A stretch of 32,000 nt of DNA from an uncultured Alphaproteobacteria bacterium (GTDB lineage: Bacteria; Pseudomonadota; Alphaproteobacteria; Rs-D84): positions 330,001-362,000 of the forward strand of contig OZ007020.1 of assembly GCA_963931495.1 (NCBI GenBank). Direction: 5' to 3'. Positions 1,540-26,293 of this stretch are shown here, piece by piece. The notes under the pieces were generated by a model. The model saw only the letters and a program-made list of their open reading frames with translations, was not told the DNA's origin and made no database searches. Position numbers and translations under genes: made by a program. Each line of letters starts with the position of its first letter. Position 1 is the first letter of the stretch.

Positions 1540-3063
1540 TTATGATAATTTTTTACGCAGTATTTCATTTACAACGGCCGGATTTGCTTTGCCACCGGTT
1601 GATTTCATAACAGCACCAACAAAGAAGCCGAGCAGCCCTGTCTTGCCAGATTTATATTGTTCAACCTGGGGTGCGTTGTTGGCAATTACGTCATCTATAA
1701 CTGATTCAATTGCGGCGGTGTCCGTAATTTGCTGCATACCGAATTTTTCGGCAATCGCGCGCGGGGTGCCCGTTTCGCCGTCCAGCATTTTGATAAATAT
1801 TTCTTTGGCTTGTTTTCCGTTGATTGCGTTTTCGGCAATCATGTCAACTAATTCAGCCAAATCAGATGGGGTGATAATCCGCGCTGTGCCGCACTCAGAT
1901 GTATCCAGCGCGTTTTTTGTATCCCAATTTTCGGGGTGTGCGAACAATTCAGAAATCATCCAATTTGCAATGGATTTTGCGCGTTTTGGGTTGTTACCAA
2001 CCGCCGCATCAAACCATTTTGATATATCTGTTGTTTCGGTCAGACGCGCGGCATCATATTCAGACAGCCCGAAATCATGCACATAGCGCGCGCGGGTCGC
2101 CGCCGGCAGTTCTGGCATGGTACTGCGTATGCGTTCTATTGTTTCTTGGCTGATTTCCAGTGGCAGCAGGTCTGGGTCAGGAAAGTAACGATAATCCAAC
2201 GCGTCTTCTTTGCTGCGCATAACGGATGTTGTTCCATCAGCCTGGGAATAGCGCATTGTGTCCTGGGACACTGTGCCACCATTTTCGTATATTTCAATTT
2301 GACGGCGCGATTCGTATTCAATGGCTGATTTTATGAATTTGAACGACACCATGTTTTTTGTTTCGGTGCGTGTGCGGAATTCGGTGGAACCAACAGGACG
2401 TACAGACACGTTAACGTCGGCACGCATGGATCCTTCTTCCATATTTGCCTTGGACACGCCCAATGCACGGGCGATTTCACGAATTTCACGCAGATAACGT
2501 TCGGCTTCGTCCGGGGATGATATATATGAATTATTTTCCGGGTTCTTTGTATCCAAGAATGTCACAATTTCCAACAGTGCAACACCAGTGCGATTGTAAT
2601 CTGCAAAAGATTTTGTCGGATGTACGTCGTGTTTCAGTTTCCCGGCGTCTTGTTCCAGGTGTGCGCGTTCAATTAAAATCTTTTTCGGATTGCCATCGTC
2701 GCCCATAATTTCAACCCAGCCGCGACCAACAATTGGTGGAACTTCGGGTGGTTGGGATATCTGATATCCCTGGGGCAGGTCAGGGTAAAAATATTGTTTA
2801 CGGGCAAATATACTGCGGCGCGATATTTCGGCATTCAGCCCCAGTCCCATTTTTATCGCCTGTTCAACGCAGTATTCATTTAATACCGGCAACATGCCCG
2901 GCATGGCGACATCAACCATTGAAACCTGGGTATTGGGGGAATTTGACGGGTTATAGTCCGCAGATGCACCACTGAACAGTTTGCTGTGGGACAGTACTTC
3001 TATGTGTGTTTCCAGTCCGATAACCAATTCCCAATCTGTTGTTTTGCCCTTTATCGTAAACAT
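1540..3063 (-). CDS. gatB: Asp/Glu-tRNA amidotransferase subunit B
   Basis: The translation is GatB-like throughout (WELVIGLETHIEV, PGMLPVLN, QYFYPDLPQGYQISQ, C-terminal GKANPAVVNEILRKKL). I moved the start from 3141 to the ATG at 3063 (MFTIKGKTTDWELVIGLE). That ATG has an AAGGAAA Shine-Dalgarno, and the longer ORF would run through the tRNA gene. Confidence 0.95.
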   Translation of the reverse strand: MFTIKGKTTDWELVIGLETHIEVLSHSKLFSGASADYNPSNSPNTQVSMVDVAMPGMLPVLNEYCVEQAIKMGLGLNAEISRRSIFARKQYFYPDLPQGYQISQPPEVPPIVGRGWVEIMGDDGNPKKILIERAHLEQDAGKLKHDVHPTKSFADYNRTGVALLEIVTFLDTKNPENNSYISSPDEAERYLREIREIARALGVSKANMEEGSMRADVNVSVRPVGSTEFRTRTETKNMVSFKFIKSAIEYESRRQIEIYENGGTVSQDTMRYSQADGTTSVMRSKEDALDYRYFPDPDLLPLEISQETIERIRSTMPELPAATRARYVHDFGLSEYDAARLTETTDISKWFDAAVGNNPKRAKSIANWMISELFAHPENWDTKNALDTSECGTARIITPSDLAELVDMIAENAINGKQAKEIFIKMLDGETGTPRAIAEKFGMQQITDTAAIESVIDDVIANNAPQVEQYKSGKTGLLGFFVGAVMKSTGGKANPAVVNEILRKKLS

Positions 3064-3075
3064 TTTTATTTTTCC

Positions 3076-3104
3076 TTGCTTTTTGTGTTTTGGTATCTTA
3101 TTAT
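3076..3104 (+). promoter_or_regulatory. candidate sigma70-type promoter for tRNA-Phe
   Basis: TTGCTT (3076-3081), 17-nt spacer, TATTAT (3099-3104). This places a start about 3-4 nt upstream of the mature tRNA 5' end at 3115. The -35 overlaps the gatB SD on the other strand. Confidence 0.35.
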
Positions 3105-3114
3105 TGCTTTCGCT

Positions 3115-3190
3115 GGCCAGATAGCTCAGTTGGTAGAGCAAGGGACTGAAAATCCCTGTGTCAGTGGTTCGATTCCACTTCTGGCCACCA
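3115..3190 (+). tRNA. tRNA-Phe (anticodon GAA), 76 nt, CCA encoded
   Basis: Cloverleaf folded by hand. Acceptor GGCCAGA/TCTGGCC; D arm GCTC-AGTTGGTA-GAGC; anticodon arm AGGGA-CTGAAAA-TCCCT; variable loop GTGTC; T arm AGTGG-TTCGATT-CCACT; discriminator A; CCA. Confidence 0.92.
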
Positions 3191-3194
3191 TTTT

Positions 3195-4661
3195 TTATTT
3201 CCCCATTATTTTTGTTGGACGATTATCAATGCCGGCGCACTGTTCTATGTGCTTGGCCAATTGCATGACGCGCATGTCGTCAAATTTACGCCCGATTGTT
3301 TGCGTCCCCAGTGGTAACCCATTATCCGCAATTCCAGCCGGTACACTGCATGCCGGAATGCCAGCCAGGTTCATTGCAACGGTAAATAAATCCAGTGCAT
3401 AATATTCCAGGGGCGATAAATCTGAATCTAATGGTAATGCCGTACCGGCACCAGATGGACACACAATTAAATCGCATTGTTCAAATGCGCGGTCAAATGC
3501 GTCGGCAATCAATCGGCGAACGCGGGCGGCCTGCATAAAATAGACTTCGTACGATTCGCTGGACAAAACGGCCGTGCCGATAATGATACGGCGTTGGACT
3601 TCGGTTCCAAATCCGGCGGCACGTGTTTTTTTGTATGTGTCAATCAAGTCGTCGCCATCAACACGCAGACCATAACGCATGCCATCATAACGTGCCAGAT
3701 TGGATGAAGCCTCGGCCGGGGCAATGATATAATATGCCGCCAACGCGTCCAGAATATTCGGGATGGATACTTCAATAATTTCTGCGCCCAATGATTTCAG
3801 GTCTGCAATTCGCGCATCAAATATGCGTTTCATATCGGGCGAAATTTCAACATTTGAAAATTCTTTTATCACGCCGATACGTAATTTTTTACCGTCACCC
3901 AAAATTGGTTCAAGCGGTGTATGTGCATGAAATCCGGCATCCGCGCTGGTTGAATCCTTTGGGTCATGACCCGCCATTGCGCTTAATAACAATGCCGCAT
4001 CATCCACCGTGCGTGCAATTGGGCCCGGGGTGTCCAGGCTGGACGCAAATGCAACACAACCCCAACGGCTGCACAGGCCATATGTTGGTTTCATTCCAAC
4101 CAATCCAGTAATTGATGCCGGAAATCTGATTGAACCGCCCGTGTCTGTACCCGTGCCACCCATGGCCAGGCCAGATGCAACCGCACTGGTTGTGCCGCCG
4201 GATGAACCGCCGGCCGTTAATTTGCGTTCCAATTGCCACGGGTTAATCGGTGCGCCAAAGTAACTGGTTTTGCTGAATGTCCCCATGGCGAATTCGTCCA
4301 GGTTGGTTTTGCCCAATAATACTGTGCCGGCGTCTATGAATTTTTGCGAGACTGTTGATTCATATTGCGGGATAAAGTTTTCCAGCATGTGTGATGCCGC
4401 GGTTGTGCGAATGTCGCGGGTTGCAAATAAATCCTTCATCCCGATTGGAATGCCGTCCAAGGGCAGGGGATTTCCCGCCGCATATCGTGCGTCAGACGCA
4501 GCCGCATCCGATAACGCGCGTTCAGGTGTGGTTGTGATATAGCAATTTAATTCCGCACCATATTTTTCAATGCGTTCTAGATGTGCGCGCGTCAGTTCTG
4601 TCGCGCTGATTTCGCGTGAGTTTAATTTTTTTAATGCTTCTGTTATTGTTAAATCAATCAT
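3195..4661 (-). CDS. gatA: Asp/Glu-tRNA amidotransferase subunit A (amidase signature family)
   Basis: 488 aa with the amidase signature GGSSGGTTSAVASGLAMGGTGTDTGGSIRFPAS and a typical GatA N-terminus (LTITEALKKL...ISATELT). ATG at 4661. Confidence 0.95.
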   Translation of the reverse strand: MIDLTITEALKKLNSREISATELTRAHLERIEKYGAELNCYITTTPERALSDAAASDARYAAGNPLPLDGIPIGMKDLFATRDIRTTAASHMLENFIPQYESTVSQKFIDAGTVLLGKTNLDEFAMGTFSKTSYFGAPINPWQLERKLTAGGSSGGTTSAVASGLAMGGTGTDTGGSIRFPASITGLVGMKPTYGLCSRWGCVAFASSLDTPGPIARTVDDAALLLSAMAGHDPKDSTSADAGFHAHTPLEPILGDGKKLRIGVIKEFSNVEISPDMKRIFDARIADLKSLGAEIIEVSIPNILDALAAYYIIAPAEASSNLARYDGMRYGLRVDGDDLIDTYKKTRAAGFGTEVQRRIIIGTAVLSSESYEVYFMQAARVRRLIADAFDRAFEQCDLIVCPSGAGTALPLDSDLSPLEYYALDLFTVAMNLAGIPACSVPAGIADNGLPLGTQTIGRKFDDMRVMQLAKHIEQCAGIDNRPTKIMGK

Positions 4662-4677
4662 CGTGATTCTGCTTTTG

Positions 4678-5298
4678 TTAACGTGTTTTGATTTGTTGTA
4701 ATTTATGTTCGCTTATGGCGCGTTTTATTATCCCGGGGCGGAACATAGATAATATCCTTGCATATTCGTTAAACAATTTTTGATCCACAGGTGTCGGAAA
4801 ATTAATTGCATTAAGTGTCATATTATATAAATTGTAATCTAGTAAAAGTACACCGTATTCTTGTTCCAAAATTTCATGCAAGTCGGCAGATTTATTCCGC
4901 ATGAATTTGTCATGGTATGAATTATGCATCTGTTCGCGAATAAATTTGCCATTACGCCCCAGTTTTGCCGTTTTGCTTAAAACAGTGCCTTCGTGCAGTG
5001 GCCTGTTTGGGCGGGCGATATGGTAGTCAATCAGCATAATTGCCGCCTTGCGCGCAGCGTTGCGTTTAACATGGCGCATAAAACGAAAATACAATTGGCT
5101 AATTTCAAATTCGTATTCCCAATTACCATTTGCCACCGGGTCAGAATTTGTGTGTTTTGAATGAACAAAATTCTGTACACATTTACCATATTTTTGATTT
5201 ACAGCGGCGACAGATGCATCGTACTGTGTGCGCAATGCCGCCATAGACTTATCTATTTCATTTATTTGTTTTATGGCACGTTGGCTAAGCTTTTGCAT
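4678..5298 (-). CDS. hypothetical protein (206 aa), no family recognised
   Basis: Long intact ORF packed 16 nt upstream of gatA and 16 nt downstream of the previous ORF. The track start at 5346 is a TTG with no SD and overlaps the upstream ORF, so I use the first ATG at 5298 (MQKLSQRAIKQINEIDK...). The N-terminus looks coiled-coil. Confidence 0.6.
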   Translation of the reverse strand: MQKLSQRAIKQINEIDKSMAALRTQYDASVAAVNQKYGKCVQNFVHSKHTNSDPVANGNWEYEFEISQLYFRFMRHVKRNAARKAAIMLIDYHIARPNRPLHEGTVLSKTAKLGRNGKFIREQMHNSYHDKFMRNKSADLHEILEQEYGVLLLDYNLYNMTLNAINFPTPVDQKLFNEYARILSMFRPGIIKRAISEHKLQQIKTR

Positions 5299-5314
5299 AC
5301 TGATACCTGTGGGG

Positions 5315-5710
5315 TTATTTTGTTTTTTCTTTATACTTATTTGCAAAGAATTTCATGCCGATATTTTTTATAACAAATTCATCATGGCATTTGCCTGATT
5401 TTATGTTTTCCAGGCAACTGTAACGGTCACACTTGCTGTCCATGCCAAGATTATAGTGCACCTGCATAAAAGAATTTACTTTTCTGTCCTGGTATGTGCA
5501 GTTTCGCGTTATTTCCACGGCGTTATCAAAAGATTGATGTGCCACCGCACGCAAATTACTGATACAACAATCATCGGGTATGTTGGTATGCGCACTGAAA
5601 GATTTTATGTATTTTACGGCGCAATCGTGTGGTATTGCGCCACATGTTACAGCCTTGGCATTGCCGGCGTATAAATCATGAACAAGTAAAATAGTCGTTT
5701 TTTGCGTCAT
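5315..5710 (-). CDS. hypothetical Cys/His-rich protein (131 aa), no family recognised
   Basis: ATG at 5710 with an AAGGAAA SD, 17 nt after the gatC stop. It has 8 Cys, including CGAIPHDC and CDRYSCLENIKSGKCH, a possible metal site. Confidence 0.6.
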   Translation of the reverse strand: MTQKTTILLVHDLYAGNAKAVTCGAIPHDCAVKYIKSFSAHTNIPDDCCISNLRAVAHQSFDNAVEITRNCTYQDRKVNSFMQVHYNLGMDSKCDRYSCLENIKSGKCHDEFVIKNIGMKFFANKYKEKTK

Positions 5711-6554: not shown

Positions 6555-7599
6555 ATTCTTCACTTTTATCAGGAATATTCCCGTCGGCAGACAGCAATAT
6601 TGCAATCCAGCGTGTGGAATCAAATTGTGCCGTAATAATAAATATTGCCACCAGTAATGGAACACTGAAAAACATTCCGGCAATCCCCCAAATTGTGCCC
6701 CAGAATACCAGGTTGATTAATATCGCCAATGTGGACAGATTTAATGTCTTGCCGGTGAATTTTGGTTCCAAAATATTGCCGAATATCACTTGTAATGCAA
6801 TCAAACCAACCGCGGTCAGTAATGGTTGTTGTAATGACGGGGCGGTTACCAATGAATATAATATCGGTAATGCGCATGCCACAATTGCGCCGATTGTTGG
6901 AATATAACTGGTTACGAATACTATGAATGCCCATATGCCGGCAAATTCAACCCCAATCATTTGCAACCAGAAATACGACAGCACACCCGTGATACCAGAC
7001 AGCACAGTTTTCATAAACAAATATTTTTTCATGTTGTCATCAATACTGTCTACGATAAAGCGTGCTTTTTTGTATTCTTTTTTATTTGGAATTAATGCGG
7101 AAAATTTTTTGTTAAATGTGCTTTGTTCAATGAACATAAACAGCATATAGACGATAATCATTCCAGTTGATGTTACAATGCCTGCGACAGATGAACCGAT
7201 GTTGGTGGCAATATTTGCGATGTTGGGTAACATGCTGGCATCAAATGTTATGCCCAGTGAATTTGACAGATAATTGCCGAATTTAACAAATTGTTCTTGC
7301 AGTCCAGGCAACGCCGCAACCAGTTCTTTGTACATAGGCTGAATCTGGGTGGCAAGAAAATATATTAACCCACACATTGCCAATACGGCCAATATGTTAG
7401 ATGTCCAATCGTACACACGTGCCGCAATCGGACGTGATATACGTGAATTTTCATCGTTTAATGGAAAAATTTTTCGTACGTATGTCGCAATTGCGTTTAT
7501 CAAATACCATAAAAATGTCGCCACCAACAGCGGTATAAATATTGACCGTCCCAACCATAAAATTAGCACCAGACCAATAATCCAAATCAAATTATTCAT
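6553..7599 (-). CDS. AI-2E (PerM/YhhT) family transporter
   Basis: 348-aa polytopic membrane protein. The C-terminal half (GIWAFIVFVTSYIPTIGAIV...FGNILEPKFTGKTLNLSTLAILINLVFWGTIWGIAGMFFSVPLL) matches the AI-2E family pattern. Confidence 0.8.
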   Translation of the reverse strand: MNNLIWIIGLVLILWLGRSIFIPLLVATFLWYLINAIATYVRKIFPLNDENSRISRPIAARVYDWTSNILAVLAMCGLIYFLATQIQPMYKELVAALPGLQEQFVKFGNYLSNSLGITFDASMLPNIANIATNIGSSVAGIVTSTGMIIVYMLFMFIEQSTFNKKFSALIPNKKEYKKARFIVDSIDDNMKKYLFMKTVLSGITGVLSYFWLQMIGVEFAGIWAFIVFVTSYIPTIGAIVACALPILYSLVTAPSLQQPLLTAVGLIALQVIFGNILEPKFTGKTLNLSTLAILINLVFWGTIWGIAGMFFSVPLLVAIFIITAQFDSTRWIAILLSADGNIPDKSEE

Positions 7600-7646
7600 A
7601 TATCAACACCCTTGGTTTATGTCGAAAACGTGCATCCAGCGCGTTT

Positions 7647-8564
7647 TTAGTTCACAGTCCCAGTTACAGGAACAGTGTCTGTTATGTTCATGGTTATATC
7701 GTTGTTTCCGTATGTCGTATTGATGATTATTATGCACAGTGCAACCAATAATATTATGTTCATAATGATTGCAAACCACGCATATTTTCCCCCAATGTGT
7801 TTGGTAAAATTCTTTTGTCCTGATACACGTATCCATATTGCGGATATTACCGCCATTGTTAATGTTAATGCGATGGCGTTCAATCCAAAAAACAGCCCAG
7901 ACAGTAAAATCACAACAATCAACGACGTAATTGTTTTGATGCGTCCAGATACAATCCATTCAGTTAATTTTGTGTACCATGACGATTTTATGTGCACCTT
8001 GCGCGATGGTGATTTTTCATTATCGGGTAATAAATATCCGGGAACCCATACCAATGAAAAGCACATTGGCATGGTACATATGATTTGCCACGACTTTAAT
8101 CCCATTGCACGCCCGCGGCGGAATTTGGCATATACATTTGATAAGAACAGTCCGCACAAATACAGATAAAATATCGCAACGACCGACATTATGGCGACGA
8201 ATGATGCGCTGGCGTGTGTTTCTATCAGCATTAATTTGAACATAATTTCATTTGCGTGTGTCACAATCAGGGCGGTTGATATGGCAAATGCAACCGACAC
8301 AATCACGTTTTGTGCATTGTTCAGGGCAATAAAACTGAATCTGTCCAGGCCATCACGTGGCATTGCACGAAACATCAAAAACGCTGAAATGATAAATACG
8401 ACAATCAATGAAGTATTAAAAATGCTGTTGGATATAGGCATGCTTTGTGATATATACCCCAATACAGCCCCAACCAAAACAAATAATAAAAAAGAGCATA
8501 ATGCAAATTTTAATGGGTTCCATAAAATCCATGATATCATTGATTGTGAACGTTGCTTTGACAT
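7647..8564 (-). CDS. hypothetical polytopic membrane protein (305 aa)
   Basis: ATG at 8564 with an AAAGGA SD, 24 nt after the sufC stop. It has roughly 7-8 hydrophobic segments and is AT-rich. No family recognised. Confidence 0.6.
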   Translation of the reverse strand: MSKQRSQSMISWILWNPLKFALCSFLLFVLVGAVLGYISQSMPISNSIFNTSLIVVFIISAFLMFRAMPRDGLDRFSFIALNNAQNVIVSVAFAISTALIVTHANEIMFKLMLIETHASASFVAIMSVVAIFYLYLCGLFLSNVYAKFRRGRAMGLKSWQIICTMPMCFSLVWVPGYLLPDNEKSPSRKVHIKSSWYTKLTEWIVSGRIKTITSLIVVILLSGLFFGLNAIALTLTMAVISAIWIRVSGQKNFTKHIGGKYAWFAIIMNIILLVALCIIIINTTYGNNDITMNITDTVPVTGTVN

Positions 8565-8588
8565 GTTTACATCCTTTGATTTTTATCA

Positions 8589-9269
8589 TTATTGTATCAT
8601 AATTTTCCCGTGGGACAAAGTTGTTATGTCTGTTGGTTTAATCATTTCAGTAAATGTCGGTTGATGACTGATAATCAAAAATGTTGTATCAGGCATATCA
8701 TTGATTGTTTGTGCAATTTGCCCGCGAACATTGGCGTCAGCCCCAGAATCTGGTTCGTCCAGAATGGCCAGTTTTGGATTTGTCATTACCAATTGCAGCA
8801 ACATCAGGCGTTTGCGTTCGCCGCCAGAAAAACCAACATTTATACTGCGGTTCAGCCAGTCTTTGGGAATGTCCAGTTTTTCACGTGCCATATCCAGTTT
8901 AGATAAAAATTCGCCCATGGATAAATCGTGCCCAGTGTCAAAGTGTTTGTGCGATGCCATGGAATGTTTCAAAAAACTTAGTACAGTTAATCCTGGAATT
9001 TCTGGGACATTTTGTGCACCGATAAATATGCCCAGCAACGCACGTGTGGTTGTTGTTTCTGATGTAATATCGCGGCCATCAAATATTATATTGCCACTGG
9101 AAATTGTATATCCAGGCATTCCAGCAATCGCACCCACCAATGTGGATTTACCAGAACCATTATGACCCGCCAACAGGTGACGTGCACCATGGGCAATGTT
9201 CATATTTATATCTGTTAACAAATTTTTCCCATCCAGTGACACAGATAAATTTTTTATTTCTAGTATCAT
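8589..9269 (-). CDS. sufC: Fe-S cluster assembly ATPase SufC
   Basis: 226-aa soluble ABC ATPase. Walker A is GHNGSGKST, the signature is FSGGERKR, and Walker B is LAILDEPDSG. It lies immediately downstream of sufB. Confidence 0.9.
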   Translation of the reverse strand: MILEIKNLSVSLDGKNLLTDINMNIAHGARHLLAGHNGSGKSTLVGAIAGMPGYTISSGNIIFDGRDITSETTTTRALLGIFIGAQNVPEIPGLTVLSFLKHSMASHKHFDTGHDLSMGEFLSKLDMAREKLDIPKDWLNRSINVGFSGGERKRLMLLQLVMTNPKLAILDEPDSGADANVRGQIAQTINDMPDTTFLIISHQPTFTEMIKPTDITTLSHGKIMIQ

Positions 9270-10640: not shown

Positions 10641-11186
10641 TCAGTCGCTTGTTTGGGTGGCCAGTTGTCGGGCCTGGGTGAAAAATGTCAATGATTGTCC
10701 CAACAGGCCGTCTGTGAATGTTGCCGCCAATATTCCGTCTGGATCGGTTGTTGTCAAATGGTGTAAAAACGCATCCGCACGATTCATATAGTTATCAACA
10801 CTGCGGGCAACTTCGGTATCCAGTTTAATACAACGGCGCAATTTTTCCAGTGCAAATGGATTTTTTGCATATTCGTCCATTATCCCACCCAGTGCACGCC
10901 ACAGTGGGTGTTCTGATGTGTTGCGTGGCATGACATCAATCGCCGCCATGATTGGTATCAGATTTTGCAGCAAGTCTTGGTATATCATTTCGGCATTTTC
11001 GGCAACCGCATTTGTCGCAGACTTGTTTTTCAGTACTGATTGAATTTTTACAATCAAATTGTATTGATGGGTCAGGGTTTTAGACATATCACGAATACGC
11101 ATGTTTGTTCGGTATGTGTAATATAACATGCCAATCCCAAGAACAGTGATTAAGCCCATACAAACTAAGATTATGGTATCGTGCAT
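10641..11186 (-). CDS. hypothetical N-terminally membrane-anchored protein (181 aa)
   Basis: The track start at 11204 is a TTG. The ATG at 11186 has a perfect AGGAG SD. It has one N-terminal TM segment (IILVCMGLITVLGIGMLYY). The stop is 4 nt before the sufB start. No family recognised. Confidence 0.55.
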   Translation of the reverse strand: MHDTIILVCMGLITVLGIGMLYYTYRTNMRIRDMSKTLTHQYNLIVKIQSVLKNKSATNAVAENAEMIYQDLLQNLIPIMAAIDVMPRNTSEHPLWRALGGIMDEYAKNPFALEKLRRCIKLDTEVARSVDNYMNRADAFLHHLTTTDPDGILAATFTDGLLGQSLTFFTQARQLATQTSD

Positions 11187-11218
11187 AAAACAACTCCTGT
11201 GCAAAATTATTATGGTTC

Positions 11219-11272: not shown

Positions 11273-11301
11273 TTGCACAGATTCGGTCAAGTTGATATAA
11301 T
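11273..11301 (+). promoter_or_regulatory. candidate sigma70 promoter of the TcpQ-like/secretin pair
   Basis: TTGCAC (11273-11278), exact 17-nt spacer, consensus TATAAT (11296-11301). It lies 44 nt upstream of the ATG at 11345. Confidence 0.5.
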
Positions 11302-11344
11302 AATTATAATAAATATGATGAAACACTCAGGAAAGGAAGCTTTT

Positions 11345-12295
11345 ATGTTCCGCAAGATTTTGATTGTTGCAATGTTTGCAACGGCGGCTGGGTATTGCTT
11401 TGCCGCAGAAACGTTGCCCCAGGTTGTCACGTCAGAGGTTTTTTATACCCAGGCCACAGATGTTGATGTGTCCCAAGATGTCCAGGAAAATGCAAATGCA
11501 AATACCGTAACTGCGCAATCGGTGCCTGTGTGGCCAATTGCTGGTTCTGATGCAGATGTTCAAATTACATGTGAAGATGGCGCGTGCAGTGGCGGGGACA
11601 GCAAAAAAGACAACATTCGCATCGTTTCAAAAATTGGCGCGGACCTGGTTGTTGAAAATAATTTTAATCTGGGGGCATCAGACGGTGATTTTACTGGATG
11701 GTCTGGTGGGGTGAATATGCTGCATGGTACGCAAATTCCGGTGGGATTTGACGATGAATGTAAAAACGGTTCGGAAATGCCATTGCTGCATCGTGAAATG
11801 CTGGAAGATGATGGTGGAACTGTGCTGACCGTGTCGCGCAGCAGTCGGCGTGATTGTACCCAATATCGTGATGGATATGAAGCGTTCGTTGCAAAAATGG
11901 GTATGGATGCCACAGAGGTGGCCAATGCAAATGCGAATATTTCCAGTGACCTGAATGGGGTGACAACGGATAATCCGTTGGATGCGGAAATTGCGGTGGA
12001 TATATCTGCGGATGCCGAAGCGCCAATTGTCTTGACGGACCAGGTGCGTTCGTGGGTCGTTGCAAATGGCCAGACGTTACGCCAAGTGTTACAAGATTGG
12101 TGCAACAAAGAAGGTTGGGATTTGGTTTGGGCAACATCGCGTGAATACCCGATTGAGGCCAGCGCCGTATTCAAGGGACGCTTTGTTGATGTGGCGTCTG
12201 CGCTGGTGCGTAATTTTGCCCGTGCAACACCGATTCCGTATGCTAAATTTTATAAAGGAAATCGTGTTCTGGTGATATCAACATCCGAAGAATAG
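11345..12295 (+). CDS. exported protein with C-terminal TcpQ/PilL-like domain (316 aa)
   Basis: Start moved to ATG 11345 (GGAAAGGAAG SD). The Sec signal peptide is MFRKILIVAMFATAAGYCFA/AE, with no lipobox. The C-terminal 83 aa (12044-12292) read VRSWVVANGQTLRQVLQDWCNKEGWDLVWATSREYPIEASAVFKGRFVDVASALV. This matches my memory of the TcpQ/PilL secretin-partner domain. The N-terminal ~230 aa are unrecognised. Confidence 0.65.
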   Translation: MFRKILIVAMFATAAGYCFAAETLPQVVTSEVFYTQATDVDVSQDVQENANANTVTAQSVPVWPIAGSDADVQITCEDGACSGGDSKKDNIRIVSKIGADLVVENNFNLGASDGDFTGWSGGVNMLHGTQIPVGFDDECKNGSEMPLLHREMLEDDGGTVLTVSRSSRRDCTQYRDGYEAFVAKMGMDATEVANANANISSDLNGVTTDNPLDAEIAVDISADAEAPIVLTDQVRSWVVANGQTLRQVLQDWCNKEGWDLVWATSREYPIEASAVFKGRFVDVASALVRNFARATPIPYAKFYKGNRVLVISTSEE

Positions 12296-12332
12296 TTGGT
12301 TGTATTTCAGATTGCCGTAGGAGAATATAATT

Positions 12333-13961
12333 ATGACCAAACAGATAAAACTTTTTGTTATGTGCAGTGCAATGTGTGCCATTTTGGCCGGCTGTGCACG
12401 GGAAGAATCTGCCAAGGTTGCGGCATCTGTGGACCAGGACTTTATTAATGCATATGATGCGTTTGAATTGGCCAAAACACCACGTGCCCAGGTGGCAAAC
12501 GGTGATACGGTTTCTATGTCCGAAGGGGTTTGGTTGGGGGCGTCATCAACACTGTTGGAACATCGGAATAATTTACCGTCACAGTTTGAAACAAATACGG
12601 GAATAACGATTTTACTTAACGAACCTGTCAGTTTACAGGTGTTGGCAAATAATATAACATCTATCACCGGCATACCGGTTAAAATAGACAGCCAGATTGA
12701 TTCGGATAAATTAAAAAAGACGATAAATATTGCTTATACAGGACGTCTGTCGGGGCTGTTGTCCCAGATTGCCACAGATTTGGACCTGTTGTGGTATTAT
12801 GATAAATCGTCAATCGTATTTTATGAAACAGAAACAAAAACGTTCACGCTGTATGCGCTGGGGACCGACGTATCATATCAAACGGCGGTTGAAACAGATG
12901 ATGGGAATGCGGTTTCACTGGAATCAACACTGAAAGAATGGGACGAAGTTGAAAATGCAATTGAAACAATTATCGGTGATGTTGATAATGCCAGTTTCAC
13001 TGTATCGCGCAGTTTGGGTACGATTACTGTAACGGCGCCACCATCAATTCTGAATCGTGTTGGCGAATATATTGAACGCCAAAATAAACGCTTGTCACAG
13101 TTGGTAACGATTGATGTAAAGGTGTTACAGGTATCAATATCAAATGATTCGGCGTTCGGATTAAATCTGGCGGCGGCAATTAATTCGGCGTCTGGACTGA
13201 ATATTGTTGCCAATCCAAAGAATAATTTGACCAGTACCGAAGCCAGCAGTATGAATATCGCCGTGTTGTCAAATGCGGTGTCGGCGGTTACCGGGGCAAC
13301 ACATCTGGAAGATGGCGATGTGGTATCTGGGGCGTATACACAAGACCAGATTCAAAATGGTTCATTATCTGGATTGGCGGGGACGGATGCGTTGATTCAA
13401 GCATTGGCAAAACAGGGCAAGGTATCATTGGTTACCAATGTCGGTGTTACAACGCGGAATAATCGCGTTGCGCCGGTGAATAATACACGTACAACCGGAT
13501 ATATTAAGCGTTTTGAATCGCGTAACTTTACAACGGTTGAATCCAGTACGGTTGATCAAGACGATTTGGAAACAGGTTTTTCAATGCAGTTATTGCCGAA
13601 TGTTTTAGAAAATGGCAAAATATTGCTGCTGTTCAGAATGTCGGTGCGTGAATTGTTGCGTATGTCAACCCAGACGATTGGTGAAGTTACCCTGCAATTA
13701 CCAGAGGTTGAAGAACGCAGTTTCATGCAAGAAGTAATTATGGAATCTGGCCAGATGTTGGTGGTGTCTGGGTTTGAAAAACAGGGTAACACGGATACGC
13801 GCTATGGGCTGGGTGATCCGGACTTTATGGCACTGTCGGGGTCACGCGAAACATCGGCAACGCGTGATGTGTTGGTGGTTATATTGACGCCACAAGTGTT
13901 GGTCAGCCCAATGGATGCAGAACGCAGTATCCAACAGCATTGGGGGGCACCGTTGAATTAG
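12333..13961 (+). CDS. lipoprotein secretin, PilN/TcpC (type IVb pilus) type
   Basis: AGGAG SD and lipobox LAG-C21 (MCAILAGCAREE). The secretin-like C-terminal beta domain spans about aa 257-522. Its blocks are LVTIDVKVLQVSISNDSAFGLNL, GKVSLVTNVGVTTRNNRVAPV, GFSMQLLPNVLENGKILLLFRMSV, MESGQMLVVSGFEK and RDVLVVILTPQVLV. Confidence 0.75.
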   Translation: MTKQIKLFVMCSAMCAILAGCAREESAKVAASVDQDFINAYDAFELAKTPRAQVANGDTVSMSEGVWLGASSTLLEHRNNLPSQFETNTGITILLNEPVSLQVLANNITSITGIPVKIDSQIDSDKLKKTINIAYTGRLSGLLSQIATDLDLLWYYDKSSIVFYETETKTFTLYALGTDVSYQTAVETDDGNAVSLESTLKEWDEVENAIETIIGDVDNASFTVSRSLGTITVTAPPSILNRVGEYIERQNKRLSQLVTIDVKVLQVSISNDSAFGLNLAAAINSASGLNIVANPKNNLTSTEASSMNIAVLSNAVSAVTGATHLEDGDVVSGAYTQDQIQNGSLSGLAGTDALIQALAKQGKVSLVTNVGVTTRNNRVAPVNNTRTTGYIKRFESRNFTTVESSTVDQDDLETGFSMQLLPNVLENGKILLLFRMSVRELLRMSTQTIGEVTLQLPEVEERSFMQEVIMESGQMLVVSGFEKQGNTDTRYGLGDPDFMALSGSRETSATRDVLVVILTPQVLVSPMDAERSIQQHWGAPLN

Positions 13962-13965
13962 TATT

Positions 13966-13993
13966 AAAAAATCCCGCGATTGCGGGATTTTTA
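13966..13993 (+). terminator. rho-independent terminator after the secretin gene
   Basis: AAAAA-ATCCCGC-gatt-GCGGGAT-TTTT, 5 nt after the stop codon. Confidence 0.7.
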
Positions 13994-15170: not shown

Positions 15171-15196
15171 AAAGTACAATCAATATGGGGACGGGA

Positions 15197-16066
15197 ATGA
15201 AAAAAATTCTGTGTTTAGTTATGCTGGCTGGATTTGTAATGCCGGCGTTCGCGGCGACGTCGTCGGCCCCGGCGCGACGTTCTGTGGCCAGTCAAATGGT
15301 TATGGCGGCACCACGCGCCACGGCATCAACAAATCAGATAACCGCAATGGCAAATGCAAATAATGCGTCGTCTGCAAAATTGGCAACAACGCCAGATATC
15401 GTGCCAAGTGCGGTGCGCGTTGATGCGGATTCCAGTGTGGATGATGATACCGTAACGGATAATCGTGAAAAAGAAAAATTGGCATGTATCAGCAATAATA
15501 TCGGAATTGGTAACACATTTGTCTGGGCGTCCAGATACAGCAATACAAATGACTATGCCACAATGGTGGAAGATGTGGAAAATCCGGAAAATAATGTTTG
15601 CTTTGTATTAGTAGAAGTAAAATCAAATGACCCAAAAATTAGTGTTTCTGATGTCCCTGGTAAATATTTCGTAATGGGGAATGATATTACGTGTGGCGAT
15701 TGGGCCGATGTTGATACACTGCGCCAGCGTATATTGGATGCCAAGAAATCTGTGCGTACATGGGCAACCGTGGGCGGTGTTGTCGGTGGTGCCGGAATTG
15801 GTGTCGGTGCAATGGAATTATTTGGTAATCGCTGGATCGGTGGTGCCGTAGAAGGCCAGGCCGCCATGGATGATGGGCAATTGTTATTATCCCAGTTATT
15901 GGTTATGCGGGATTCTGGTGACCCAGAATATGACGATTTTGTGGAAAATTTGACCGTGTTGCAGCAAGAATGCAACAGTGATGTTTGGATGGCCGGGGGC
16001 AAGCCCGCAGAATGTGATGAATTTGACTATGAATTCATATTAAATGGTCTGAAACAAATTGAATAG
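15197..16066 (+). CDS. hypothetical exported protein (289 aa) with glycine-zipper hydrophobic segment
   Basis: The signal peptide is MKKILCLVMLAGFVMPAFA/A. An Ala/Ser/Asn-rich low-complexity region follows. The Gly-zipper segment WATVGGVVGGAGIGVGAMELFG spans nt 15761-15826, and the C-terminal tail is acidic. No family recognised. Confidence 0.6.
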   Translation: MKKILCLVMLAGFVMPAFAATSSAPARRSVASQMVMAAPRATASTNQITAMANANNASSAKLATTPDIVPSAVRVDADSSVDDDTVTDNREKEKLACISNNIGIGNTFVWASRYSNTNDYATMVEDVENPENNVCFVLVEVKSNDPKISVSDVPGKYFVMGNDITCGDWADVDTLRQRILDAKKSVRTWATVGGVVGGAGIGVGAMELFGNRWIGGAVEGQAAMDDGQLLLSQLLVMRDSGDPEYDDFVENLTVLQQECNSDVWMAGGKPAECDEFDYEFILNGLKQIE

Positions 16067-16096
16067 TTTTATGCGTACATTATATATATGTATATA

Positions 16097-16118
16097 AAAA
16101 CGCCGATTCGGCGTTTTT
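16097..16118 (+). terminator. rho-independent terminator
   Basis: AAAA-CGCCG-att-CGGCG-TTTTT, 30 nt after the stop at 16066. Confidence 0.6.
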
Positions 16119-16162
16119 ATACTTTTAATATGTATGTATTTTTTCTTATAGTGGTCTATGTG

Positions 16163-17182
16163 ATGCAGGATGATTTGTTTTATAAGTTATTGTTGCTGCG
16201 CAGTCCGGGAATCGGCCCGGTGCGATATACGGAATTAATATCGCAATTCGGGGATGTTGAATCGGCGGCCCGTGCGGCCGGGGCGGCCAATAATGCGATT
16301 CGGGATTCGGTTATGCGTGAAATGGAACGCGCAAGTGATTTGGGTATAAATTATATTTGTGACGATTCGGTTTACTATCCGCAAATGTTAAAAAAAATTA
16401 AAAATCATCCGCCGGTGTTAACTGTACGTGGAAATCTGGATGCATTGACGCGGCCAACAATCAGCATCGTTGGCACACGACACGCAACCGCCGCAGGAAT
16501 GAATTTTGTGTCCAATATTGCCCAAGCGTTTGCACAACATGGAAATGTGGTTGTGTCGGGCATGGCAATGGGTACAGATACGGCCGCGCACCGTGGTGCG
16601 TTAAGTTGTCCTGGAAATGCGCAAACAATCGCGGTCGTTGCCGGTGGTGTTGATTATATTTGGCCATTGGAAAACGAATCGTTGTATTGGGAAATTGTTT
16701 CGCGCGGCGCAGTGGTCAGTGAAATGCCAGTTGGTTTTACACCAGTTGCAACGAATTTTGTTCAACGTAATCGCTGGGTCGCAGGAATCGGAGAACAATT
16801 GATTATCAGCGAGGCAGATGTTAATTCGGGCAGTATGAAAACAGCGCGATTCGCATCTGAATTTAATCGCAAAATTTGGGCAATCCCATCGCATCCGTCG
16901 GATTCACGCGCCTTTGGGCCAAATTCTTTGATTCAATCAGGGGTGGCAAAACTGTGTATGGGAATATCAGATTTTTTTGAACAAAATAAAAATAATGTAA
17001 AAAAAGAAAAAAAATTCGATTCGGAAAATTTGCTGTTGGATGCGTTGGGAACAATTCCTGTGTCAGAATCTGTATTGGCAGAAATTGTCAAAAAATCTGT
17101 TTCGGAAATAAAAGCAGATTTAGTCATCTTGGAATTGCAGGGATTGGTGCGTAAATCCAATGGTGGATATGTCCGTGCGTGA
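16163..17182 (+). CDS. dprA: DNA-processing protein DprA (Smf)
   Basis: LLLLRSPGIGPVRYTELISQFG (N-terminal HhH/SAM-like region), IVGTRHATAAG...VVSGMAMGTDTAAHRGAL (Rossmann core) and a C-terminal winged-helix-like tail. The start at ATG 16163 is uncertain (weak SD; a TATAGT at 16147-16152 would give a near-leaderless mRNA). The longer track ORF from 16088 covers the terminator hairpin. Confidence 0.85.
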   Translation: MQDDLFYKLLLLRSPGIGPVRYTELISQFGDVESAARAAGAANNAIRDSVMREMERASDLGINYICDDSVYYPQMLKKIKNHPPVLTVRGNLDALTRPTISIVGTRHATAAGMNFVSNIAQAFAQHGNVVVSGMAMGTDTAAHRGALSCPGNAQTIAVVAGGVDYIWPLENESLYWEIVSRGAVVSEMPVGFTPVATNFVQRNRWVAGIGEQLIISEADVNSGSMKTARFASEFNRKIWAIPSHPSDSRAFGPNSLIQSGVAKLCMGISDFFEQNKNNVKKEKKFDSENLLLDALGTIPVSESVLAEIVKKSVSEIKADLVILELQGLVRKSNGGYVRA

Positions 17183-17509
17183 ATAAATTCATGTCTATAC
17201 AGTGTATATACAACGCGCGGAAAACAGCCAAAAAAACGAATCGTTGTCAAAAAGTAAATGTTGAAAAATTGTTTAACAATTGGTTGCAAATACGAATTTA
17301 TCTTTTAACTTAACAGACGTATCCAAAACGATTGATGAAACATTCAATCACCAAAAGCGAGAGGGGTTATAACGTAGGAACATAACATAAACACTAAATT
17401 TTTATGACACCGTATGGTTCAGTAAAATTTAGCGTTTATGCGGGGGTGGTTTTTATACTCTTGCACAGGCGGATGACTTTTTTGAGGGGACAGGAAAAGG
17501 AGAAACGAT

Positions 17510-18796
17510 ATGCAGGCAGCGGCACAAAAAATAATGACAAACTTGGAACAAATCAAGGGGGCCATTGCCGCGAAAATGGATTCTGCAAGTTTTACTTCTT
17601 GGATTGCGCCATTGCAATTTGATGTGTGTGATGATGTTTTGGTATTGGGCGCACAAAATCAATTTTCAGCAGACTTTATAGCCAGTGTTCATATGGGGGT
17701 TTTGACGTCTGTCGCGGCCCAATTTGGTTTGGGGGTAAAATTATCTGTGCGTGGCGCGGCGAATGTGGCACCGATTGCAAATGATAATAACGCCCAGGCA
17801 TATGCGCCTGTGGCCGGGGTTTCGTCGGTGCATGTGGCCAATCAAGATGCGTTCGCGGCATTCGTATGCGCAGATGAAAACACGTTCGTTGTGTCGGCGT
17901 GCAAAAAACTGGCGGCGGGTATGGTTCCATTCTCGCCGTTGTTTATTTATGGCCCGGCAGGATGTGGAAAATCTTTATTGGCTGAATGCGTTGAACGTGC
18001 GGCGGCTGGACGTGTGATAAAAATGTCAGGCGGGCAATTTGTTTCTGAATTCACACGCAGTTTGCATGACAGAACAGTATTTGCATTCAAAGACTTTTGT
18101 CGTAACTGTGATACATTTATCTTGGATGATGTTCAAATGTTGGCAGGCAAGCGTGCAACATGTGAAGAATTTATTCAATTAATTCTTGATTTGCGTGCCG
18201 CCGGCAAGAATGTTGTTCTGACGGCGAATGCGGCACCAAATAATTTGAACGGATTTGATCGTCGGATGCAATCATTGATGGCATCTGGGCTGGTGGCGGA
18301 TGTGGTGGCACCAACAATGAATGTACGTCGCGTTATGTTGATGCGTGCGGGGGTTGCCGCTGATATGGCAGATGCAATTGCATCGCGCGTTGCGTCTGAT
18401 GGGCATTTGGTCGCCGGTGTGGCGATGAAAATTAAAACGTATGCCGAACTGATGGGTGAAACTGTGACAATGGATGTTGTGCAACGTTTGTTGTCTGATT
18501 CTTTGCAGAAGGCAAAAACACCAATTGCAATGGTTAAATCAATGTGTGAAAAATTGGCGGTGTCGTATGATGCGGTATGTGGCAAAGGGCGCAGTCGGGC
18601 AATCGTTTTGGCACGTCAAATGATGATGGCGGTATTAAAAGATGCGACAAATTTGTCACTGGCGGAAATTGGGCGTGTTTGTGGTGATCGGGATCATGCA
18701 ACTGTTCTGTACGCCATTTCACAAATTGAAAAATTAAAGAAAACAGACTTGGTTTTGGCGGCGCAAATTTCGCAAATGGTTGCAGAATATAAATAA
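17510..18796 (+). CDS. dnaA: chromosomal replication initiator DnaA (divergent, 428 aa)
   Basis: AGGAG SD. The N-terminus reads FTSWIAPLQF...LVLGAQNQFSADFI. Walker A is GPAGCGKS and Walker B is FILDDVQ. The arginine-finger block is FDRRMQSLMASGLVADVVAP. Domain IV reads RAIVLARQMMMAVL...LAEIGRVCGDRDHATVLYA. Confidence 0.85.
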   Translation: MQAAAQKIMTNLEQIKGAIAAKMDSASFTSWIAPLQFDVCDDVLVLGAQNQFSADFIASVHMGVLTSVAAQFGLGVKLSVRGAANVAPIANDNNAQAYAPVAGVSSVHVANQDAFAAFVCADENTFVVSACKKLAAGMVPFSPLFIYGPAGCGKSLLAECVERAAAGRVIKMSGGQFVSEFTRSLHDRTVFAFKDFCRNCDTFILDDVQMLAGKRATCEEFIQLILDLRAAGKNVVLTANAAPNNLNGFDRRMQSLMASGLVADVVAPTMNVRRVMLMRAGVAADMADAIASRVASDGHLVAGVAMKIKTYAELMGETVTMDVVQRLLSDSLQKAKTPIAMVKSMCEKLAVSYDAVCGKGRSRAIVLARQMMMAVLKDATNLSLAEIGRVCGDRDHATVLYAISQIEKLKKTDLVLAAQISQMVAEYK

Positions 18797-18837
18797 AAAT
18801 AATTTACGCGTATTAAAGGGCGGAACTTAATTCACTG

Positions 18838-18866
18838 TTGGAAAGACTGATATTTTGTGATAAAAT
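18838..18866 (+). promoter_or_regulatory. candidate sigma70 promoter for the Cys-rich exported protein
   Basis: TTGGAA (18838-18843), 17-nt spacer ending in TGA (extended -10 TG), TAAAAT (18861-18866). It lies 38 nt before ATG 18904. Confidence 0.5.
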
Positions 18867-18903
18867 GCAAGTAACAGTTGTGTTGGTGATGGAGCAGGGA
18901 ATT

Positions 18904-20340
18904 ATGAAAAAAATTTTACTATCTGTTATATCGGTATGTTGTTTGGCTGGGGTGCCAATGCATGCAGATGCGGCGTGTGGCGACAATTCTGTTCGTTTTT
19001 CCGGATTCAAAGGACCAGATGATAACGAATATATATATGCATTGACGTCAGATTTTGACAAGGTAAATTCTGGATATTCTGGGGCAAATAATTTTACAAC
19101 CAGCGGTTCGGTATGGGAATGTGGCAGCAACAGTTGCGCACACGGTTCTGGTATAATTGCGCCGGCGGGACACGCATGGGATAACCACAGGCAGAGAGGT
19201 GAAAGATTCTATTGGTGCAATAATGCATTTGGTGATTCATGGCAAGAATATGATTTGATTCCATGCGACGATAGTTTCTATGAAAGTTTAGCAAAAAATC
19301 CATCGTTGGAAAATCTGAATATTGATATGAATGGTACATCAGATGAGATGATTTATCGCATTGATTCTAACCGTGGTAAAACCACTGTTTTTTGCTATAC
19401 AAATCCAGAACGGGTTGCGTGTGTAACAACAGATGGGGCGCAGTGGTTTAACGGCGAATGTCAATGTCTGGAATTAAATGGCGTGGCGCGTGAATGGAAC
19501 GGGACAACCTGTGTCGCAAAGCCGAACGCAACAGGAATTTCAGACGGCAACAACACAGCAGGGCAAGACAATGCACAGGATGCCGGGCAAGAATCGGTTG
19601 TTGCGGGTGCTGGTGCACAATCTGGGGATACATTGAATCAAACAGAAAGATGCATTCGCAGTCGCTGTGGCGGGTTGACGGGAAATACATACAGCCAGTG
19701 TATTACGTGTTGTTACGTACCGGCATCTGTTGCAGTATGGAACAGTGACACACGTATTTGTGAATGTGTGGACAATCAACAGACGTTTAATCCGTCATCG
19801 TTACAGTGCGAAACAGCAAGCGTGGCACAATCAACGGGTGTCTTTGAATGTGATGCAACAATTTTGTCGCAAATAAGTAATTACGCATCACAATATGCCG
19901 GTGATGTGACGATTACAACCCAGATAAACAATATTTTAACGTATTGCAGTGGCAGTGCCCCGTCGCAAATTGTGTTTAATAATATGTATAATCAATTGTT
20001 GTCTTTGATTGGGCGGGCGGATGATGCGGCCGCCGCGGCACAACAAAATGCCCAAATAACAGCGTCGCAAAATAAAATCAAAAGCGCATATGCGTGGTTG
20101 ACAGAACAACAAGAAACACTGGATGTCAGCAAGTGGCGCAATGCCGAAGGAAACTTTAACACATCGCGTTTGTTATCTGATTCTATTGCTGGGGTCGTTC
20201 TGGGGACGGCAGGTGGGCTGATAACCAGTCATGTTGTTAAAAATGGACAGATAGAAAACGGCTTTGAAGATTTGCAATGTACGGTTGGTGGACAAGTTGT
20301 TGCCAACTGGAATGACCAGTTCCGCGTCGGTATCCAATAA
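18904..20340 (+). CDS. hypothetical Cys-rich exported protein (478 aa) with C-proximal glycine-zipper segment
   Basis: Start moved to ATG 18904 (GGAGCAGGGA SD). The signal peptide is MKKILLSVISVCCLAGVPMHADA/A. It has more than 20 Cys and two copies of a W-x(4-6)-C-x-C-x(13-14)-C module (nt 19444-19512 and 19738-19809). A Gln/Ala-rich helical stretch precedes the hydrophobic SIAGVVLGTAGGLITSHVV segment (20182-20238). Confidence 0.6.
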   Translation: MKKILLSVISVCCLAGVPMHADAACGDNSVRFSGFKGPDDNEYIYALTSDFDKVNSGYSGANNFTTSGSVWECGSNSCAHGSGIIAPAGHAWDNHRQRGERFYWCNNAFGDSWQEYDLIPCDDSFYESLAKNPSLENLNIDMNGTSDEMIYRIDSNRGKTTVFCYTNPERVACVTTDGAQWFNGECQCLELNGVAREWNGTTCVAKPNATGISDGNNTAGQDNAQDAGQESVVAGAGAQSGDTLNQTERCIRSRCGGLTGNTYSQCITCCYVPASVAVWNSDTRICECVDNQQTFNPSSLQCETASVAQSTGVFECDATILSQISNYASQYAGDVTITTQINNILTYCSGSAPSQIVFNNMYNQLLSLIGRADDAAAAAQQNAQITASQNKIKSAYAWLTEQQETLDVSKWRNAEGNFNTSRLLSDSIAGVVLGTAGGLITSHVVKNGQIENGFEDLQCTVGGQVVANWNDQFRVGIQ

Positions 20341-26242: not shown

Positions 26243-26259
26243 GCCTTTTATGATAGAAT
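26231..26259 (+). promoter_or_regulatory. candidate strong sigma70 promoter for the pilin-like gene
   Basis: TTGAAT (26231-26236), 17-nt spacer ending in TGA (extended -10), TAGAAT (26254-26259). It lies 35 nt before ATG 26294. The -35 sits inside uvrC codons 3-4 on the opposite strand. Confidence 0.55.
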
Positions 26260-26293
26260 AGAAAATAATAAATAGCAAATAGAGGTCGTAAAA

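Follow-up and report, generated by a model that had tools for sequence, protein, structure and literature searches.

We analysed a stretch of 32,000 nucleotides from contig OZ007020.1 of an uncultured alphaproteobacterium (assembly GCA_963931495.1, positions 330,001 to 362,000; hereafter the window), which contains two adjacent open reading frames: ORF1, encoding a secreted protein, and ORF2, encoding a lipoprotein secretin. It is very probable that, in a gut alphaproteobacterium with a reduced genome of roughly 0.96 Mb, ORF1 and ORF2 form the outer-membrane part of a type IVb pilus machine encoded on the chromosome. The pair is not an orphan, because a motor operon is located on the same contigs in congeneric genomes and a pilin-like gene is present in the window; it belongs to an ordinary pilus machine, the genes of which are scattered. 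The two ORFs had been picked out in a first-pass annotation, made by reading the letters of the window, and ORF calls confirm both their place and the 37 nt between them.

The assignment of ORF2 is based on sequence profiles, on homology to a protein of solved structure and on its predicted fold. Residues 357–523 match the Secretin family (PF00263) with 50.1 bits, against a cutoff of 27.5, and cover positions 1–168 of the 169 in the profile. Among the NCBIfam models the best match is that of the PilN family, TIGR02520. At the N-terminus, at least 90% of 90 family members retain Cys21 (AILAG-C21 in ORF2), the residue at which the mature protein would start and be acylated. The lipobox and the long secretin β domain had therefore both been read correctly in the first-pass annotation. 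ORF2 also aligns colinearly with BfpB (ORF2 residues 33–523 with BfpB residues 14–528, E = 4e-39), as present in PDB entry 9u5s. This entry is the solved 17:17 BfpB-BfpG secretin complex of the bundle-forming pilus (BFP) of enteropathogenic Escherichia coli (PMC12531336).

The structure of ORF2 was predicted with AlphaFold2 from an alignment of 90 sequences, giving a predicted local distance difference test score (pLDDT) of 78 and a predicted template modelling (TM) score of 0.65. The top Foldseek match of the model is 9u5s_A (E = 2e-30), with TM scores of 0.57/0.65 over 537 columns, and the secretins of type III and type II secretion systems, type IVa pili, phages and Tad systems have query-normalised TM scores of only ~0.2–0.33. 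The model has a helix at residues 23–48, following Cys21, then a disordered stretch at residues 56–76 and a series of α/β domains. The architecture is that of BfpB, with a lipid-anchored N-terminal linker (LG), N0, N3 and the secretin domain, and no S domain.

ORF1 is predicted to be exported by the Sec pathway. Its signal peptide is nearly invariant among 45 homologues, and has a Tyr before the Cys, so that there is no lipobox. The C-terminal region matches the TcpQ family (PF10671) with 65.5 bits (gathering cutoff 27), covering profile positions 1–78 of 80, and the C-terminal 84 residues of ORF1 (232–315) match the BfpG chain of 9u5s with E = 1e-14. Both the signal peptide and the TcpQ-like C-terminal segment had been noticed before these searches were run. 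An exported TcpQ partner is thus encoded directly upstream of its secretin, across the 37-nt gap. Between the signal peptide and the TcpQ domain lies a conserved middle domain, with conserved blocks in the 45 homologues that include DNIRIVSKIGADLVVENNFNLG, GWSGGANMLHGTQIPVGFDDEC and SEMPLLHREMLEDDGG. It is flanked by two hypervariable acidic linkers, the second of which precedes the TcpQ domain. The middle domain has no match among Pfam families, NCBIfam families or PDB sequences. An AlphaFold2 model of ORF1, from the 45 homologues, has a mean pLDDT of 48.8 and is confident in the TcpQ domain only (~75–83); the middle domain has a pLDDT below 50.

The two proteins also align in the regions that make contact in the solved complex. 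In BfpB, the segment M39-F53, including I46-Y47-I48-G49, was shown by mutagenesis to bind BfpG (PMC12531336). This segment aligns with T59-T73 of ORF2, and I46-Y47-I48-G49 with V66-W67-L68-G69; the W-L-G motif is present in the consensus of the 90 family members. On the partner side, strands β3 and β5 of BfpG align with conserved segments of ORF1. Residues 59–73 of ORF2 are disordered in the monomer model, as would be expected for strands that form only upon binding of the partner. The matches to profiles, to 9u5s and in Foldseek all agree with the original description of the pair as a TcpQ/PilL-like partner with a secretin of the PilN/TcpC type.

Profile scans find no ATPase, platform or peptidase gene in the window, as had been noted from the letters, nor in the 10 kb past each end (~52 kb in all). 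There is no pilus gene in either of these 10-kb flanks, which dismisses the suggestion that the window is the edge of a canonical pilus cluster lying just outside it. In order to locate a motor elsewhere, the ATPase of the first outgroup was used as bait. It recovered many ATPases from gut Alphaproteobacteria, most of them sharing over 70% identity with one another. Their genes lie in a conserved block, lpxK-lpxC-small lipoprotein-PilO-PilP-ATPase-platform ... gyrB, which contains no secretin. The proteins of this distant locus are PilO (PF06864), PilP (TIGR03021), a T2SSE ATPase and a T2SSF platform protein.

To link the two loci, the window secretin was joined to an ATPase as one artificial protein, and this combined query, with patterns drawn from both halves, was searched in collections of metagenomes and GTDB genomes. 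Secretin and ATPase were found on one contig in six cases overall, 113–127 kb apart. Three are metagenome contigs, with a distance of 114–120 kb (ERZ1026780 NODE-1, of 935,024 bp, ERZ808259 NODE-1 and ERZ1026868 NODE-1), and three are from GTDB genomes, with a distance of 113–127 kb (CALXLG01 contig 1, CALXMU01 contig 1 and CALXXV01 contig 6). Fourteen of the 23 GTDB genomes with a secretin in the best 80 matches also have the ATPase in the best 80, and the genomes with both include Candidatus Enterousia avistercoris and Ca. E. avicola. The longest-contig sizes in the secretin and ATPase tables do not coincide among the listed representatives, which is uninformative; coincidences do occur for TcpQ homologues, at 695,807 bp (P0525 and P0318) and at 201,727 bp (P0535 and P0406).

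All fetched loci, among them 60 for the secretin and 115 for the ATPase, were surveyed by local tblastn. ORF1 and ORF2 are adjacent in 58 of the 60 related loci and in all three outgroups, and the order sufB-hyp181-ORF1-ORF2 (where hyp181 is a conserved protein described below) is kept in 43 of 43 secretin loci with enough flank; a check of synteny had been proposed in the first-pass annotation. In all 60 related loci the genes for PilO, ATPase and platform are absent from the 10 kb around the secretin, and all 115 ATPase loci lack both secretin and TcpQ genes. The small lipoprotein of the ATPase block (138–154 aa, no family match) is found directly before PilO in 103 of the 115 loci, for example at L044 7486..7902, L016 7491..7955 and L020 7510..7941, and possibly belongs to the pilus operon as a component that has been overlooked.

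Proteins more than 50% identical to ORF2 form one cluster, and the next relatives are 39–43% identical. Among these outgroups, the secretins P0121, P0122 and P0124 are each the second gene of a chromosomal operon with the order TcpQ-secretin-PilO-(PilP-sized gene)-T2SSE ATPase-T2SSF platform. As the three nearest outgroups have the intact operon, the layout in Enterousia is a fixed split of one operon: ORF1 and ORF2 are ancestrally the first two genes of the motor operon, which was split once, and the split has become fixed in the lineage. The pilus cluster that normally surrounds a type IVb secretin of the PilN family is therefore absent locally, present on the same contig in congeners, and present at the locus itself in the outgroups. 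Of the two possibilities that had been raised for the pair, the portal of a scattered pilus is supported by a motor operon 113–127 kb away in congeners and a pilin-like gene 12 kb downstream. Nothing was found in favour of a domesticated secretin whose function has not been described.

The exact ORF2 protein is present on many gut-metagenome contigs, of up to 958,617 bp. Relatives that are 83–93% identical are found in metagenome-assembled genomes from the guts of humans and animals, which carry the labels Candidatus Enterousia, uncultured Alphaproteobacteria or Rickettsiales, and by this similarity the source organism is assigned to Candidatus Enterousia, order Rs-D84. Passages of PMC12306168 describe Enterousia genomes as smaller than ~1 Mb, without most biosynthesis, including that of amino acids, nucleotides and lipids, and propose that these bacteria rely on partner cells. 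Where pilus and secretion-system terms appear in that source, type IV pili are reported for another lineage and none are mentioned for Rs-D84. ORF2 has a steady length, 541–543 aa in nearly all of the 120 closest clusters. The ratio of non-synonymous to synonymous substitution (dN/dS, Nei-Gojobori, ~45 orthologues) is ~0.05 for ORF2 and ~0.12 for ORF1, these being rough values because dS is saturated (>1). ORF1 and ORF2 are working genes under strong purifying selection.

The first-pass annotation had seen no pilus machinery near the unit. For a pilin this does not hold, as a pilin-like gene (26294..26758), which had been missed, is located 12 kb downstream of ORF1-ORF2, between uvrC and a pseudouridine synthase gene. 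Its product starts with MKQESG/RSMIEMMGVLAIMGVITV, which has the form of the class III signal of type IV pilins: Gly stands at -1 and Glu at +5. The match to N_methyl (PF07963) has E = 0.0034 and 17.3 bits, under the 21.2-bit threshold, and there are weak matches to PilA and GspH. Orthologues in two other species (loci L043 and L076) are 59–60% identical, with an invariant N-terminus, Cys111 and Cys139. Low overall identity together with an invariant N-terminus and cysteines is a pattern like that of major pilins, and the protein is a candidate for the filament subunit of the same machine. No convincing pilin gene was found near the outgroup and ATPase loci. Two genes there, of 154 aa like the pilin-like gene of the window, were rejected as pilins: one by the PilO operon of L016 encodes an unrelated lipoprotein, and one by the outgroup operon of L186 an unrelated protein with a signal peptide.

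The outgroup locus L186 has two further features. The genes uvrC and CDP-alcohol phosphatidyltransferase flank its pil operon, and the same two genes flank the pilin-like gene of the window; the likeness could go back to an older linkage or could be coincidental. L186 also encodes, at 2281..5317, a 661-aa tetratricopeptide repeat protein followed by a second, short secretin (341 aa), directly upstream of uvrC and a few kb from the intact type IVb operon.

A number of observations weigh against the assignment to a type IVb pilus, or complicate it. The TIGR02520 score of ORF2, 240.5 bits (96 bits for the runner-up, MshL), is below the equivalog cutoff of 287.65. By the NCBI criterion ORF2 is thus a divergent relative and not an equivalog, and of the three profile searches that had been called for, those with Secretin and TcpQ are above cutoff and that with TIGR02520 is not. 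ORF1 has a conserved middle domain with no counterpart in BfpG and no predicted fold. The PilO-PilP-ATPase-platform operon would be expected in the source genome by extrapolation from congeners, whose secretins are 83–93% identical. A motif scan for prepilin peptidase (Peptidase_A24; G-x-G-D-x-K/R in hydrophobic ORFs) found none in 3.1 Mb of pil-locus flanks, and this leaves the processing of the pilin unaccounted for. The candidate pilin has a leader of six residues and an Arg at +1, neither of which is typical of classical type IVb pilins, and it is connected to the machine by inference. Finally, the saturation of dS limits the precision with which selection can be estimated.

On the basis of these observations, we propose the following mechanism. 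ORF2, by homology a self-piloting lipoprotein secretin, would receive its lipid at Cys21 after export and reach the outer membrane through the Lol lipoprotein-sorting pathway. There it would multimerise, presumably with a stoichiometry like that of BfpB-BfpG, into a gated BfpB-like secretin channel, consisting of the lipid-anchored linker, N0, N3 and the barrel without an S domain. ORF1, exported by Sec, would bind to the ORF2 linker (around V66-W67-L68-G69) on the periplasmic side through its TcpQ domain. It would hoop the ring by β-strand pairing with the linker and so stabilise the assembly, as BfpG does with BfpB in 9u5s. The filament would be polymerised at the inner membrane by PilO, PilP, the GspE-family ATPase and the GspF-family platform protein, the genes for these four being a separate operon ~115 kb from the pair in this lineage. 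It is probably made of the 26294..26758 pilin, and would pass through the pore of ORF2.

By analogy with BFP, the toxin-coregulated pilus (TCP) and the R64 thin pilus, the most likely role of such a pilus is adhesion or aggregation, to the host mucosa or to partner cells. A more specific proposal, which we regard as speculative and on balance unlikely, is that the pilus is an organelle for attaching to and exploiting a partner cell or host surface, or for importing DNA as food, with the clade-specific middle domain of ORF1 adapting the complex to this lifestyle.

Two other roles have weaker support than adhesion or aggregation. The same split type IVb pilus might chiefly serve DNA uptake, as a competence pilus whose secretin is the portal feeding ComEC and DprA. 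This would be consistent with the presence of dprA (16088..17182) three genes downstream of ORF2, and of a ComEC-type gene (PF03772) two genes after the pil operon in the outgroup locus L185. DNA could also be useful as a nutrient, given that the bacteria are described as lacking nucleotide biosynthesis in parts of PMC12306168. However, dprA lies beside the core genes plsY, rpsT and dnaA, with a terminator and a gene on the opposite strand between it and the pair, and no retraction ATPase was seen at any of the pil loci examined. To our knowledge, moreover, the competence pili characterised so far are of type IVa or Com type, and not of the PilN/BfpB type. We therefore consider DNA uptake as the chief function to be improbable.

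A pilus that stabilises mating pairs is a poorer candidate again. It would be a thin pilus of the R64/IncI PilL-PilV kind or of the kind found on integrative and conjugative elements (ICEs) such as PAPI-1, serving conjugation by a type IV secretion system (T4SS). The family does have this association: 2476 of 2924 plasmid records with a PilN-family match are conjugative. A VirB4-type T4SS ATPase gene is also present a few kb upstream of the lpxK-lpxC-PilO block (L044 356..4397; L016 1..1083), followed in L044 by a serine recombinase (resolvase) gene, and in L185 (GCA_031549385.1) genes for a T4SS coupling protein and a weak TrbC match lie directly before the intact pil operon, with the ComEC-type channel on its other side (6612..9215, 17496..19133). 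On the other hand, VirB4 is found by the operon in only 19 of the 115 loci, which, with the resolvase, suggests a variable integrated element. The pil loci have core synteny in every genome examined (sufB ... rpsT/plsY, and lpxK-lpxC ... gyrB), the window has no integrase, relaxase or repeat hallmarks, and the identity to plasmid PilN is only 26–28%. These features make a mating function quite unlikely.

It is hardly credible that the pair is an orphan or repurposed secretin without a motor, such as an exit pore for filamentous phage or protein, or a decaying remnant: secretins used by phages and other systems exist and there is no motor gene in the ~52 kb around the pair, but the motor operon is on the same contigs in congeners, the pair is ancestrally part of that operon, strong purifying selection and constant size exclude decay, and the core-gene synteny is fixed with no flanking phage genes. 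A filamentous-phage secretin, the edge of an ICE or plasmid, and a pseudogene were accordingly rejected on synteny, flanks and dN/dS.

The type IVb pilus assignment can be set against known systems. The pair resembles BfpB-BfpG in having adjacent genes for a small periplasmic partner of TcpQ fold and a lipoprotein secretin, with neither an S domain nor a separate pilotin apparent. It differs in sequence, being ~22–27% identical, and in the extra middle domain of ORF1, which has 316 aa compared to 114 aa for the BfpG chain; in size ORF1 is nearer to the longer PilL. The Enterousia pair is also chromosomal, with the other pilus genes not adjacent, whereas bfp is a single plasmid operon. The outgroup order partner-secretin-PilO-PilP-ATPase-platform is the same as pilL-N-O-P-Q-R of R64, and the plasmid homologues (TIGR02520) similarly combine a PilN-family annotation with an adjacent TcpQ-domain gene. 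Unlike PilL-PilN of R64 and ICEs, ORF1 has a Sec signal and not a lipoprotein signal, the pair is off any mobile element, and the genes of the operon are spread over three or more loci.

In the case of TCP, a single operon on a pathogenicity island contains the genes, including those for pilin, peptidase and ATPase. The TcpQ family, PF10671, takes its founding pair from TCP, and the likeness of ORF1 is at the level of this family, as compared through its profile. The lipoprotein secretin of TCP has a periplasmic partner needed for stability, according to literature cited in PMC12531336. Secretins of the PilQ type, from type IVa pili, fit the ORF2 model poorly (TM ~0.3). The layout of type IVa systems, with the secretin locus (pilMNOPQ) apart from pilBCD and pilA, is a precedent for a scattered arrangement. 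These systems use PilF or TsaP, and not a partner of TcpQ fold, as stated in part of PMC12531336. The pair thus represents, in divergent form, the known combination of a type IVb pilus secretin and its TcpQ partner, and what is unusual about it is the stably scattered layout of the genes.

The coordinates of the features are collected in Table 1.

Table 1 Features of the two-gene unit and the pilin-like gene, in positions of the window
Feature	Position	Strand	Description
Sigma-70-like promoter candidate	11273..11301	+	TTGCAC ... TG-TATAAT, in the intergenic region from which the suf operon and ORF1 diverge; pattern match only
ORF1	11345..12295	+	316-aa secreted secretin partner of the TcpQ/BfpG/PilL family (PF10671, BfpG match)
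ORF1 Sec signal peptide	11345..11404	+	MFRKILIVAMFATAAGYCFA, predicted cleavage before AE; read from sequence
ORF1 conserved middle domain	11525..11914	+	~residues 61–190 (~130 residues), four largely conserved Cys
ORF1 TcpQ domain	12047..12280	+	Residues 235–312, near-invariant across the clade
ORF2	12333..13961	+	Lipoprotein secretin of 542 aa, type IVb pilus class (PilN/BfpB/TcpC)
ORF2 lipobox	12384..12395	+	L18-A19-G20-C21; read from sequence
ORF2 putative partner-binding segment	12507..12551	+	Residues 59–73 (TVSMSEGVWLGASST); alignment with BfpB
ORF2 C-terminal secretin pore domain	13401..13901	+	Residues 357–523, long β strands/hairpins of high pLDDT, no S domain after it
Intrinsic-terminator hairpin	13967..13992	+	AAAAAUCCCGC GAUU GCGGGAUUUUU; closes the two-gene unit
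Type IV pilin-like gene	26294..26758	+	154 aa; MKQESG/RSMIEM..., Glu at +5, hydrophobic N-terminal helix, two conserved C-terminal Cys

The likely start of ORF1 is the ATG at 11345, which gives the 316 aa that are also called on public contigs. Position 11273 corresponds to the promoter hexamer and to an upstream in-frame TTG, and not to the likely start. The ATG of ORF2 is preceded by GGAG. The promoter-like site (TTGCAC/TGCACA, a spacer and an extended -10, TG-TATAAT) is indeed present, with 10 of 12 positions matching, although its description as a near-consensus promoter carries less weight than it might, since such matches are frequent in the region (14 observed, 8 expected from shuffles). 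The hairpin terminator stands: it has an 11-bp stem and a folding free energy of -15.9 kcal/mol (z = -4.2), and none of 200 shuffles folds as well. It is absent from the list produced by a simple terminator scan.

The window as a whole is core chromosome. It contains gatB/gatA, ruvX, an AI-2E transporter gene, sufC/sufB, rpsT, plsY, dprA, dnaA, a GyrB/ParE-type topoisomerase gene, dnaJ, a CDP-alcohol phosphatidyltransferase gene and uvrC, and also genes for a pseudouridine synthase and an AsmA-family protein, dnaN and ppa. On the other side of the intergenic region from ORF1 (10641..11204, - strand) is the gene for the conserved hyp181 protein of 181–187 aa, with an N-terminal membrane helix and no family match. 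It adjoins sufB upstream, on the same strand with a 4-nt gap, and 43 of 43 related loci have it. The suf operon probably begins with this gene, which shares the divergent intergenic region with ORF1.

Several other genes in the neighbourhood may be mentioned. Two ORFs without family match (206–222 aa and 131 aa; 4678..5710, - strand) interrupt the gatCAB operon between gatC and gatA, and are kept on all contigs examined. The genes at 15185..16066 (+) and 18838..20340 (+), and at L007 13679..15136, encode clade-specific secreted Cys-rich proteins of ~290–500 aa, with signal peptides and no family match. One of them lies between plsY and dprA, and for the two encoded in the window a hydrophobic segment is present at the C-terminus as well. 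All of these proteins may be located on the surface of this partner-dependent bacterium. UvrC (24818..26302, -) is short, 474–494 aa compared to 594 aa in the outgroup locus L186, and DnaA (17510..18796, +), whose gene is ~3.5 kb from the ORF1-ORF2 pair, has 428 aa; both are in keeping with a reduced genome. Downstream of the window, a 126-aa membrane protein with two helices (L007 15787..16167) was suspected to be VirB2/TrbC and was rejected, having no Pfam support.

These results show that type IVb pilus clusters, which are usually described as single operons on plasmids or islands, can be divided in a stable manner among three or more loci of the chromosome. Methods that detect clusters by co-localisation may consequently miss such systems. 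For Candidatus Enterousia, a widespread and uncultured member of Rs-D84 with a reduced genome, they add a predicted surface organelle. A pilus that is kept at a dN/dS of ~0.05 in a genome of less than 1 Mb would be a sensible first target for the study of how these bacteria attach to their host or partner.

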